In this document: positions 22,575 through 37,663 of the stretch, piece after piece
Layout of the letters: each line of letters begins with the position of its first letter
Numbering within the stretch: the stretch's first letter is position 1
DNA from: Enterobacterales bacterium
Lineage (GTDB): Bacteria; Pseudomonadota; Gammaproteobacteria; Enterobacterales; GCA-2746155
Length of the DNA stretch: 64,000 nt
Assembly: GCA_965250035.1 (NCBI GenBank)
Contig: OZ252282.1
Span: 657,395 to 721,394, forward strand
Reading direction: 5' to 3'
The notes under the pieces: model-generated
Seen by the model: the letters and a program-made list of their open reading frames with translations, nothing else
Told to the model about the DNA's origin: nothing
Database searches by the model: none
Made by a program: the position numbers and the translations under genes

Positions 22575-25454
22575 ATGAAAACTACTACTAAAATTTATTC
22601 CACATTAGCACTAAGTATTTTACTTGGCTTCACTGTTAATGCCGATCAAACTACCTCTTACACGTACAATAGTTTTGGACAGGTGCTGACGATTGATGGA
22701 CCACGAACCGATGTCACCGATGTCACTACTTACACCTACGATACCTCAGGGAATGTGGCAACGATTACCAATGCTGTTGGACATGTTACACAGTTCACGA
22801 GCTATGATGGTGCCGGTAGACCTCTAACTATTATTGATGCCAATGGTGTTACGACTGAGCTAACTTATACGCCTCGCGGCTGGTTAGCCACATCAACGAT
22901 TAAAGGCCCTTCCGGACAGACTTCTCTGGATGCGACGACAACCTATACCTATGACAGTGCAGGGCGTGTAACTCAAATCGATATGCCAAATGGCACGACC
23001 ATTGATTTTGAGTATGACGATGCTGGGCGTCTTACCGCGATTGAGAACGCTCTTGGGGAGCGCATTGAGTACACCCTGGATGCGGCTGGCAACAGAACTG
23101 GGGAAGTGATTAAGGATGACCTTGGGACAATCCAGAAGACACTGACACAGACCTTTGATGAGCTGAGCCGACTTCGCTCGATTGTCGGTGCCTCGAATCA
23201 AACCACAACCTTCGATTATGATGTGAATGACAATCAGACCGAAGTCGTGGACGGTCGTAATAACGATACTGACAGTGCCTTTGATGCCTTGAATCGCCTG
23301 ACCACCATCACGGACGCTGATTTAAACGACGCCTCGATGGGTTATGACAGTCGAGACAGGCTGACCTCAGTCACTGACCAACGTAACCTAGTGACAAATT
23401 ATGTCTATGACGCCTACGACAACCTGACGAGCTTGCAATCGCCCGATACTGGGACAACAACATTCACCCATGACGATGCGGGGAATGTTCTGACTAAAAC
23501 AGATGCCGAAGGGATTGTCACCAACTACAACTACGATGCACTGAATCGATTATTGACGGTGAGTTATCCTGCTTACTCAGCACATAACATCACGTTTACC
23601 TATGATGATACGACCAATGGGAACTTTGGAGAGGGGCGACTGACCTCAGTTAGTGATGCGAGTGGTTCAACTGCCTATGTGTATGACTACCAAGGTAATA
23701 TCACAGAAGTTACCACAACGATTGGTAGTGACAGCTACACGGTTTCCTATGCCTACGATTTGGCCGGTAATCAGACGCAGATTACCTATCCCGATGGGCG
23801 AACACTGGATTATACCCGTGATGCCTCAGGACAGATAACTGCTGTAGATACCACACAAGGGGTAACAACCACCGCGATTGCATCCAGTATCTCTTACAAG
23901 CCCTTTGGCCCAGTCAGTGGGTTAACCTATGGTAACAATCTAGATTTAAGCGTTACCTTTGACCAAGATTATCGCCTTACGGGGATAGATGTGGATACAG
24001 GGACTGTTCAGGACTTGGATTATACCCATGATGCAGCGAATAACATTGATGGTAAGACGGATGGCACAGGGAGTGAGCTAGATACAACCTATACCTACGA
24101 CAATCTGAATCGTCTGACCGATGCCGCCACTACAGCAGGCTCAAAAGTATATAGCTACGATGCTGTCAGTAACCGAACTTCCTTTATCAATGAGTCAAAT
24201 CAGACAGATAGCTATGCCTATGATTCCTTGAGTAATCGATTATCTACCATCACTGAGCCCGCAGACACACAGACCTATGCGTATGACTATAATGGCAACA
24301 TCATCAGCCGTACGGACACAGCGGGTGAGGGGATGGTGTATATCCACACACCTGATAATCGACTTGCTGAAATTAATGAGAAGGTCTTAGAAGGTGGTTC
24401 GATAGCGACCTATGTCATTGCAACGTATCAGTACAATGCGGCAGGACAACGGGTGAGCAAGACCGTCGGTGGAGTAACTACTCATTATGTCTATCATCTC
24501 GATGGTTCAATGTTGTATGAGACGACGACCAGTGCAACAAATTCGACGCATTACTTGAGCATGCATACGGGAGGGCTCCCGCAAGGGTTAGCTTTAGTCG
24601 TCAATGATTCTAGTCAGTCACTAACAGATGCAATCCTATTTCAACACAATGACCACTTAGCCACACCTAAGGTGTTGACTGACTCTGCAGGTGCGATTGT
24701 ATGGCAAGCGTCACACACGCCGTTTGGTGAGGCCACAGTGAATACGGATGTGGATAATGATGGGACATACTTTGTACTTAATACGAGGTTCCCTGGTCAG
24801 TACTATGATGATGAGAGTGGACTGCACTACAACTGGCATCGTTACTATGACACAAGGACTGGACGGTATATTACTAGTGACCCTATCGGGCTTGCAGGTG
24901 GTATGAATACTTATGGCTATGTGGATGGAGATCCATTGAACTTCACAGATCCAAATGGTAATGCAAAAGTACGAAGTAGCTTTGTGAGAGACCCCAGTTG
25001 GAATATGCAAGAGACGAGGCGTCAAAGGCTCTTATTCAATCAAACTCCAGCAGGAAAAAGAGAGGCCATTCTAAATAATTATCTACGGGGGATGGCACGA
25101 AAACTAGATTCAACCTGCTTTAAGAATAGCCTTCCAGAAATGAAAGAAATATTTGATGATTGGATAATTTACGTGGACCCCAATATAGATAGTTACCAGT
25201 TACGTGGTGTTGATTATGCATATACTCATTTCGGTAGTAGACAGACACAATTTAATTACTGGTTTTTTAAAGATCCCTCTGCAACAACATTTTATCACGA
25301 GTTTAGACACATGATGCGCGACAATGATATCTTAAGTGATTCTAGAGATACTGCTAGTTTCTTGACGGATTCAGATGATTATCCGCCTATTGAGAAAGAT
25401 GCCGATGACTGGGCTAAAGCCTTCCTGTTGGATGATTGTTCATGCTTCAACTAA
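22575..25454 (+). CDS. B1: short Sec-signal RHS-core protein with a C-terminal HExxH toxin domain
   Basis: 959 aa. Signal MKTTTKIYSTLALSILLGFTVNA. YD repeats throughout. The RHS repeat-associated core ends ...FPGQYYDDESGLHYNWHRYYDTRTGRYITSDPIGLAGGMNTYGYVDGDPLNFTDPNG. The 164-aa tail (24960-25451) contains FYHEFRHM. Confidence 0.92.
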   Translation: MKTTTKIYSTLALSILLGFTVNADQTTSYTYNSFGQVLTIDGPRTDVTDVTTYTYDTSGNVATITNAVGHVTQFTSYDGAGRPLTIIDANGVTTELTYTPRGWLATSTIKGPSGQTSLDATTTYTYDSAGRVTQIDMPNGTTIDFEYDDAGRLTAIENALGERIEYTLDAAGNRTGEVIKDDLGTIQKTLTQTFDELSRLRSIVGASNQTTTFDYDVNDNQTEVVDGRNNDTDSAFDALNRLTTITDADLNDASMGYDSRDRLTSVTDQRNLVTNYVYDAYDNLTSLQSPDTGTTTFTHDDAGNVLTKTDAEGIVTNYNYDALNRLLTVSYPAYSAHNITFTYDDTTNGNFGEGRLTSVSDASGSTAYVYDYQGNITEVTTTIGSDSYTVSYAYDLAGNQTQITYPDGRTLDYTRDASGQITAVDTTQGVTTTAIASSISYKPFGPVSGLTYGNNLDLSVTFDQDYRLTGIDVDTGTVQDLDYTHDAANNIDGKTDGTGSELDTTYTYDNLNRLTDAATTAGSKVYSYDAVSNRTSFINESNQTDSYAYDSLSNRLSTITEPADTQTYAYDYNGNIISRTDTAGEGMVYIHTPDNRLAEINEKVLEGGSIATYVIATYQYNAAGQRVSKTVGGVTTHYVYHLDGSMLYETTTSATNSTHYLSMHTGGLPQGLALVVNDSSQSLTDAILFQHNDHLATPKVLTDSAGAIVWQASHTPFGEATVNTDVDNDGTYFVLNTRFPGQYYDDESGLHYNWHRYYDTRTGRYITSDPIGLAGGMNTYGYVDGDPLNFTDPNGNAKVRSSFVRDPSWNMQETRRQRLLFNQTPAGKREAILNNYLRGMARKLDSTCFKNSLPEMKEIFDDWIIYVDPNIDSYQLRGVDYAYTHFGSRQTQFNYWFFKDPSATTFYHEFRHMMRDNDILSDSRDTASFLTDSDDYPPIEKDADDWAKAFLLDDCSCFN
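22677..24838 (+). repeat. 2162-nt direct repeat, copy 1 (RHS core of B1)
   Basis: Matches 34826-36987 at a constant offset of 12149. The supplied translations are identical, as are the embedded antisense ORFs. I found no mismatch inside. The first mismatch is at 24839/36988. Confidence 0.9.

Positions 25455-37663: not shown

Follow-up and report, generated by a model that had tools for sequence, protein, structure and literature searches.

The rearrangement hot spot (Rhs) elements of Escherichia coli were discovered through recA-dependent unequal crossover between rhsA and rhsB, and the presence of near-identical cores with non-homologous tips in one chromosome is their founding property (Lin, Capage & Hill 1984; Jackson et al. 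2009, PMC2935791). Jackson et al. (PMC2935791) pointed out that no natural rearrangement between such cores had been reported, and in Salmonella an orphan toxin is activated under selection by recombination between the main and orphan rhs genes (Koskiniemi et al. 2014, PMC3967940). A 64,000-nucleotide (nt) stretch of the genome of an Enterobacterales bacterium (assembly GCA_965250035.1, contig OZ252282.1, positions 657,395 to 721,394 of the forward strand), which is referred to below as the window, harbors two RHS genes, B1 and B2, the cores of which form a perfect direct repeat, most likely produced by a very recent gene conversion between two old paralogues. The genes of this locus are lettered A where they encode the upstream partner and B where they encode the RHS core and toxin tip, while B3 denotes a third paralogue (P0122) located on the same 3.59-Mb contig.

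The repeat has the structure after which the rearrangement hot spots are named, namely long, near-identical and directly oriented core repeats on one chromosome. As in the E. coli elements (PMC2935791), the non-homologous C-terminal tips start just after a PxxxxDPxGL motif, the tips and downstream genes are AT-richer than the core, and we infer that the cores could likewise serve as substrates for recA-dependent unequal crossover. However, the E. coli cores are ~99% identical and located far apart, while the copies described here are 100% identical and 12 kb apart. Furthermore, the 5′ ends also differ between the two copies, the core comprises only the C-terminal ~725 shell residues, with the N-terminal third being encoded by a separate gene, and the proteins carry Sec signal peptides, with no VgrG, PAAR or type VI secretion system (T6SS) genes nearby. 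The arrangement also resembles the main-rhs/orphan-rhs locus of Salmonella Typhimurium (PMC3967940), in that a direct core repeat lies upstream of two different toxin/immunity modules, and recombination would join the first gene to the second toxin, with loss of the first toxin/immunity pair. In contrast to the promoterless, 5′-truncated Salmonella orphan, the downstream copy is complete and presumably expressed, with its own signal peptide and partner gene, and no recombinant has been observed at this locus. Near-identical Rhs cores with non-homologous tips being already known, the repeat itself would come as no surprise to a specialist.

Direct string comparison delimits a tract of 2163 nt with 0 mismatches and a spacing of 12,149 nt (Table 1), and the same pair was recovered by an independent repeat search and by blastn. 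The initial annotation had equated positions 22677-24838 with 34826-36987 at this offset, and the exact comparison agrees, but the left edge is situated one base further out than its length of 2162 nt allowed. The left mismatch (22675) falls in the second position of codon 34, which encodes Phe in B1 and Tyr in B2. The first mismatch on the right was correctly placed at 24839/36988, where a synonymous change occurs in the third position of the His755 codon, at a measured 40 nt rather than about 50 nt ahead of the DPIGL Asp codon (24879). Residues 35-754 of B1 are covered in full by the identical tract, and the B1 and B2 proteins are the same through residue 760. The identity gives way on both sides to short shoulders of diverged homology, in which 23/33 nt (70%; left) and 89/120 nt (74%; right) are identical and synonymous changes are found in 6/9 and 14/31 of the conserved codons, respectively. 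Beyond the shoulders, ungapped identity is approximately random (22/68 on the left; 32/120 on the right). Comparison of both N-termini bears out the claim that the upstream signal-peptide regions differ, and the decay from 89/120 to 32/120 downstream is in keeping with tips that gradually become unrelated. The core had also been judged by eye to be GC-richer than the tips, and the computed GC contents are 0.477 for the core, 0.388 for tip 1 and 0.375 for tip 2. The core matches the chromosomal backbone (0.47-0.49), while the tips, A genes, spacer and downstream small genes are AT-rich (0.35-0.42).

Table 1. Features of the RHS locus and short-read contigs overlapping it, with positions counted from the first base of the window.
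Feature	Position	Strand	Description
A1	15110-17530	+	Signal peptide, variable N-domain, N-terminal RHS shell part, C-terminal LamG_3 (Pfam)
A2	17648-20065	+	Signal peptide, variable N-domain, N-terminal RHS shell part, C-terminal LamG_3 (Pfam)
A3	20185-22560	+	Signal peptide, variable N-domain, N-terminal RHS shell part, C-terminal LamG_3 (Pfam)
B1	22575..25454	+	959 amino acids; signal peptide, RHS/YD shell, RHS-associated core, HEFRH tip 1
Left shoulder, copy 1	22643..22675 (partner 34792-34824)	+	In-frame diverged homology, ADQTTSYTYNSF vs AAETTSYTYNSY
Repeat copy 1	22676..24838	+	B1 codon 34 third base to codon 755 third-but-one base
Right shoulder, copy 1	24839..24958 (partner 36988-37107)	+	Diverged homology spanning the DPIGL / NTYGYV motif
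Toxin tip 1	24959..25451	+	HExxH metallopeptidase-like domain ending DADDWAKAF..CSCFN
I1	25472..25957	+	Likely tip 1 immunity gene; 161 amino acids, signal peptide
Spacer	25958..29483	none	AT-rich, inside the 12.1-kb interval; small open reading frames
A4	29484..34694	+	1736 amino acids; signal peptide, N-domain, N-terminal RHS shell part, Big_7/Y_Y_Y immunoglobulin-like domains
B2	34700..37663	+	987 amino acids; different signal region (residues 1-32), same shell, unrelated tip 2
Repeat copy 2	34825..36987	+	Inside B2; exact comparison
Toxin tip 2	37109..37660	+	Orphan domain, all-helical prediction, ALHPVMDNTSPVH motif
I2	37678..37968	+	Candidate tip 2 immunity gene; 96 amino acids, hydrophobic, membrane-like
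Imm32 gene	38312..38638	+	Stand-alone polymorphic-toxin immunity gene (PF15566, E 4e-8) downstream of B2
L081 (Logan contig)	17377-22715		Stops 40 nt into copy 1, counted from its left edge
L086 (Logan contig)	24809-32762		Begins 30 nt short of the right edge of copy 1; stops at the start of the A4 array
L082 (Logan contig)	36958-38874		Begins 30 nt short of the right edge of copy 2

Synonymous changes are found in 20 of the 40 shoulder codons in which the amino acid is conserved, as opposed to 0 of the 720 core codons. Given the synonymous divergence of the shoulders, the probability of observing no change in 720 codons is ~10^-217, and chance is therefore excluded. A measure of divergence is provided by B3 (956 amino acids), a member of the 90% protein cluster of B1, which differs from B1/B2 by 32 scattered substitutions in 721 core residues (95.6% amino acid identity), carries a B1-like signal peptide (3 differences in 33 residues) and ends in a third kind of tip, of the glycine-zipper type. 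Judged from this protein comparison, the B3 core displays the ordinary paralogue divergence of this genome, while the location of half of its differences in the last ~120 core residues would fit the mosaic pattern expected from earlier tip exchanges. The nearest available genomes are those of uncultured Pseudomonadales isolates (46-51% amino acid identity), in which the paralogue cores are 70-89% identical at the nucleotide level (L001/L003/L005 and L002/L004), some of them being mosaic (L001/L005: 94.6% over the first 1.5 kb). Partial homogenisation thus recurs in the family, but perfect whole-core identity does not.

As in a gene-conversion tract, older homologous sequence is present on both sides of the B1/B2 tract and the other paralogues are ordinarily diverged. 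The initial annotation had pointed to either gene conversion or duplication of the core alone, and conversion is favoured over a fresh duplication because of the diverged in-frame shoulders, the distantly related A partners and the third paralogue with its ordinary, scattered divergence. A single, very recent and non-reciprocal homologous recombination event of ~2.16 kb would have rendered the two cores identical, with the tract ending inside both coding sequences. Left of the tract, each gene would thereby have kept its signal peptide and the first residues of the mature protein, and right of it, its DPIGL junction, toxin tip and immunity gene. As B3 has the signal peptide of B1 and is about equally close in the core, the conversion probably proceeded from a lineage of the B1/B3 type, as donor, to B2. 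Concerted evolution by gene conversion occurs in other bacterial paralogues, such as tufA/tufB and the rRNA operons, where older paralogues likewise contain a perfectly identical tract that ends abruptly and is bordered by divergent sequence. Unlike in these systems, conversion at this locus would spare the variable ends and homogenise the scaffold, and so preserve toxin diversity. We suggest that it represents an example of concerted evolution in which the delivery scaffold is homogenised and the toxin, immunity and export ends stay distinct, as Rhs toxin repertoires are thought to reshuffle.

Several points weigh against this interpretation. No deletion, duplication or chimeric B1/B2 variant was seen, with the 90% protein cluster containing only the three paralogues and a 49-amino acid fragment, and no chimeric B1/B2 protein. 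The donor, direction and age of the conversion are read from protein data, and the joining of A and B proteins into one shell, as proposed below, from collinearity and size. Furthermore, the short-read contigs support the boundaries of the repeat and not its full internal identity, such that polishing could hide a few differences.

The identity might alternatively stem from a recent duplication, in which a copy of a B gene, or of its core on an excised circle (cf. the displacement model of Jackson et al.), integrated 12 kb downstream, after which both ends were replaced by foreign modules. The change of tips via incoming cassettes with short core handles is the accepted route in Rhs elements (PMC2935791), the low GC content of the tips, A genes and spacer (0.35-0.42, compared with 0.477 in the core) would suit a foreign origin, and three relatives (L004, L018 and L037) carry orphan core-end/tip modules, with a 3.2-kb, 99.5% identical repeat downstream of B. 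At least three precise events would, however, be needed (the copy, an in-frame 5′ swap that also retains a signal peptide directly behind the unrelated A4 and a 3′ swap), and the downstream copy is a complete gene with its own partner rather than a 5′-truncated orphan. Searches of the window by tblastn and a DPxGL motif scan recovered no extra core fragments, orphan toxin tips or other DPxGL motifs. Both shoulders are moreover homologous but synonymously saturated, as would be the case for pre-existing, old full-length paralogues, and we consider duplication, although the main rival to conversion, to be improbable. Purifying selection on a constrained shell, maintaining the identity without recent recombination, would accord with the strong family-wide conservation of the RHS shell protein sequence and its invariant columns. 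Selection on the protein does not, however, freeze synonymous sites, none of which differ in the 720 core codons, while the even more constrained DPIGL shoulder has synonymous changes in half of its conserved codons and B3 tolerates 4.4% amino acid change. The contrast in synonymous sites between core and shoulders refutes this explanation.

An assembly or polishing artefact, whereby a single core was entered twice or consensus polishing with multi-mapping reads evened out two similar cores, is very unlikely. Repeat-blind polishing can yield perfect identity over 2.1 kb, and records of intact B1, B2 and A4 proteins come exclusively from the NCBI/ENA genome, with none from the Logan assemblies. 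The genome is, however, assembled as a single 3.59-Mb contig, both genes are intact and in frame at all four repeat junctions, and four 294-nt tandem units that are otherwise identical still differ at a single base in this assembly. Three Logan short-read contigs from run ERR14835554, which were reached via neighbouring genes and are 100% identical to the window, furthermore show one entry into the repeat, via A3 and the B1 signal peptide (SP1), and two exits, into tip 1 and tip 2. At three of the four repeat junctions a contig stops or starts no more than 30-40 nt away, with the starts at 24809 and 36958 both located exactly k-1 = 30 nt before the last identical base, where the Logan k-mer size (k) is taken to be 31. 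A k=31 de Bruijn graph behaves in this way where the single shared body of a genuine repeat leads into two different exits, and the right boundary is thereby fixed to the base. Because these independent contigs break at the junctions, the repeat boundaries are not an artefact of long-read assembly. For the same reason, records of intact B1, B2 and A4 are confined to the finished genome, with Logan contributing further records of A3 and alaS. The repeat had been predicted to endanger short-read assembly, and this is what the contigs reveal; as such, the B genes will be missing or chimeric in draft genomes and metagenome-assembled genomes. The left end of L081 (17377) lies inside the 3′ end of A1, and no exact 31-mer repeat of it exists elsewhere in the window; a matching repeat may be present at the B3 locus, which could carry A-type paralogues.

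The two direct repeats, perfect over 2.16 kb, would constitute a good RecA substrate for deletion or tandem duplication of the 12.1-kb interval. The deletion would yield an A3-SP1-core-tip2-I2 arrangement, removing tip 1, I1, the spacer and A4, while unequal sister exchange would yield a tandem duplication with a hybrid of the B2 signal peptide (SP2), core and tip 1. Deletants without I1 would be sensitive to toxin 1 of their siblings and hence counter-selected, which may stabilise the arrangement. RecA-mediated deletion, amplification or tip exchange, as proposed in the initial annotation, is a sound expectation from Rhs biology (PMC2935791, PMC3967940). With copies that are perfect, direct and 12 kb apart, the locus provides a natural test of the frequency of Rhs core recombination, and also allows a test of whether the loss of an immunity gene restrains deletions.

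Judging by sequence and predicted structure, B1 and B2 are Rhs/YD-repeat polymorphic toxins, with shell, core motif, variable tip and immunity gene all being recognizable. The RHS_repeat domain (PF05593) matches 12 stretches in B1 and 11 in B2 (Pfam; E 2e-66), TIGR01643 also gives a match, and both proteins contain the RHS-associated core domain (Pfam PF03527; NCBIfam TIGR03696). The DPIGL motif (B1 residues 769-773) starts at 24879 and 37028 in the two genes. The core domain is conserved, with D769 and its neighbours being invariant in the family alignment, and autoproteolytic release of the tip within the shell by the core aspartates is putative. An AlphaFold2 (AF2) model of B1, built with 60 homologues, forms an all-beta spiral with a predicted local distance difference test (pLDDT) score >90 over residues ~30-770 (mean 81.6). 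Its best Foldseek matches are the Rhs effectors Tse15, RhsA, Tre23 and Tse5 (E 1e-49 to 1e-44), followed by teneurins and the BC components of Tc toxins. Sec-type signal peptides are found at the start of B1, B2 and A1-A4. In B1 the signal peptide comprises residues 1-23 (MKTTTKIYSTLALSILLGFTVNA), with cleavage between VNA and DQ, while that of B2 (MMMKGFSIKQFSNILTIILLSNLNCTMDPVAA) is followed by E; the public gene call for B2 (P0123) begins two codons later. The 120 best homologues include many short B-type proteins with a signal peptide and a conserved ...A|QQTTSYTYN start. No PAAR, VgrG or T6SS domains were found in the open reading frames (ORFs) of the window that were scanned.

Three alternative A genes in tandem precede B1, with the A3 stop located 14 nt before the B1 start, while the A4 stop is located 5 nt before the B2 start. 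The A proteins share 33-47% amino acid identity in pairwise comparisons (A3/A4: 42% over 410 residues), in line with the distant relationship initially proposed for them. A tandem array in A4 (32651-34679) consists of seven units of 294/297 nt encoding ~98-amino acid immunoglobulin (Ig)-like modules, the last four of which are 293-294/294 identical and have therefore expanded recently. In 37 of 38 long (1300-1670 amino acids), single-chain RHS proteins of the DUF6531 type, positions ~200-550 are matched in alignment by residues ~210-575 of A1-A4, and the mature N-terminus of B1 (residue ~23-35) aligns right after A, at positions ~546-589 of these homologues. The B1 shell is furthermore TcC-sized, with target-normalised template modelling scores (TM-scores) of 0.64-0.71 to TccC2, YenC2 and RHS2, compared with ≤ ~0.62 to complete Rhs cores. 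We infer that A, rather than being an accessory protein, would form the N-terminal third and B the C-terminal two-thirds of one split RHS shell. The same A-B split occurs in eight loci of five other genomes (L001-L005, L008, L033 and L065), in which the gene for an A protein of ~510-680 amino acids with DUF6531 and RHS repeats ends a few bases ahead of a B gene that encodes a separate signal peptide; the single-chain form prevails among the relatives. By Pfam, DUF6531 is present in the A protein of these relatives, while A1-A4 contain only RHS_repeat with either LamG_3 or Big_7/Y_Y_Y. A conserved LamG_3 insertion at the split point was considered and rejected, as LamG_3 is located near the C-terminal core (residues 988-1137) in the single-chain homologue P0077. 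No description of split Sec-type Rhs pairs was found in the literature searched, which is weak negative evidence.

A cocoon built from the products of two adjacent genes, the second of which bears the RHS-associated core and a hypervariable toxin, is also a feature of the TcB/TcC components of the Tc (ABC) toxins (YenB/YenC2, 4IGL; TcdB2-TccC3, 4O9X). The size of the B1 shell is that of the TcC chains (6l7i_G, 4igl_D and 5kis_B; TM-score 0.64-0.71), and in Tc toxins several alternative C-type genes can share one B partner. In contrast to these systems, no TcA-like gene is present in the window, the A proteins lack SpvB and beta-propeller domains (Pfam), both halves have signal peptides, and A contributes only ~350 shell residues together with a LamG or Ig-like domain. 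The domains that define Tc toxins are lacking, and by sequence the A-B pair is a split Rhs protein of the DUF6531 type and not a Tc homologue. The locus also shares features with the RHS toxins of the Sec/type II secretion system class, including those of the WapA type (Zhang et al. 2012, PMC3482391), namely signal peptides, RHS repeats, a polymorphic toxin with its immunity gene, laminin-G or Ig-like adhesion domains and tips of the HExxH metallopeptidase type. However, the described toxins of that class are single polypeptides, whereas the toxins described here are split, with one signal peptide per half and several alternative A halves.

A rather doubtful extension of these observations is that the four alternative A half-shells could close any of the three B half-shells. 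They would then form a combinatorial, Sec-exported two-piece system in which gene conversion keeps the B cores identical for interchangeability while the tips and A heads diversify, and the cysteine-containing (CxC) tail described below forms part of a common cargo handling. The LamG_3 domains of A1-A3 and the Ig-like/Y_Y_Y repeats of A4 would, just as tentatively, represent different binding domains in such a system. More original than the repeat itself are the split shell with its alternative A halves, the possible interchangeability of these halves and the CxC motif on unrelated tips. If confirmed, the split shell and CxC tail would extend the knowledge of Rhs toxins that do not use type VI secretion.

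An exhaustive profile-free search identified 52 representative homologues of tip 1, all located at protein C-termini, mostly after DPxGL, with HEFRH and the DADxWA...CxC ending as conserved features; no match was found in Pfam or among PDB sequences. Because the homologues are C-terminal and conserve HEFRH, tip 1 is assigned on these motifs to an RHS-borne, HExxH metallopeptidase-like toxin family. The I1 gene is preceded by a ribosome-binding site (GAGG) 9-10 nt upstream of its ATG (25472), and two metagenomic contigs unrelated to each other (L083, 30% identity, E 7e-19; and L085) encode an I1 homologue directly after a tip-1-type RHS gene. The I1 product is thus likely the cognate, periplasm-located immunity protein for tip 1. 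For tip 2, no homologues and no Pfam or PDB match were obtained, and its single-sequence AF2 model (pLDDT 43.8) was not of usable quality. Its ALHPVMDNTSPVH and HVD motifs, together with the all-helical prediction, recall the zinc phospholipase C/HET-C class, which Zhang et al. 2012 (PMC3482391) include among the RHS toxins, and this reading is only a lead. By position and composition, I2 is a candidate immunity gene for tip 2, with no family match in Pfam or NCBIfam, and no named Tox family of Pfam was matched by either tip.

A CxC tail ends all three paralogous toxins (25431-25451, 37634-37660 and P0122) despite their unrelated tips, with the terminal sequences being ..DDCSCFN, ..DWDCSCYEY and ..PLCTCTIEN. 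A CxC motif occurs within the last 14 residues of 23/119 B1 homologues with many tip types, against a background of 2.1% of non-RHS ORFs, and 46 of the 52 members of the tip-1 family keep CxC after the DADxWA motif. No relevant report of a C-terminal CxC motif in Rhs toxins was found in the literature searched, which is not proof of its absence.

The RHS locus is flanked by housekeeping genes, including a branched-chain keto-acid dehydrogenase operon, alaS, rsgA and electron-transfer flavoprotein genes. A promoter/terminator scan of positions 13500-30000 returned fewer sites than shuffled sequences and was not used. Within the spacer, a fragment of AbiEii (26961-27209; 82 amino acids) is probably a pseudogene remnant. 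A SMODS-associated NUDIX protein is encoded on the minus strand (28212-29027) and resembles effector models of the cyclic oligonucleotide-based antiphage signalling system (CBASS) and defence-associated reverse transcriptases (DRT), with no cyclase or reverse transcriptase nearby. Two tRNA-Ser(GCT) genes (8032-8124 and 12693-12783), 92% identical over their last 78 nt, enclose an AT-rich ORF (8684-12376; 1230 amino acids) for which both NCBIfam (E 1e-157, under the curated cutoff) and PADLOC (E 2e-142) give the anti-phage protein Upx as a match. This looks like a small defence island inserted at a tRNA next to the RHS island. Downstream of B2, the region 38312-45700 contains ~15 small, AT-rich ORFs on the same strand, the first being the Imm32 gene. 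Many of these encode signal peptides or transmembrane segments, no orphan toxin tips are found there, and the region may represent an array of immunity genes without cognate toxins. In one of the two metagenomic contigs with I1 homologues (L085, 1-3993), a long-form RHS gene with a tip-1-type toxin is located directly downstream of secretin and N_methyl pseudopilin genes. This single case, to which nothing in the window is similar, hints at dedicated secretin-type export of Sec-class RHS toxins. In L004, a 3182-nt direct repeat (12186-15367 and 19147-22328; 99.5% identical) starts at the end of the B core, and the interval between its copies holds primase and integrase genes, which may reflect a link between a mobile element and the tip region in this relative.

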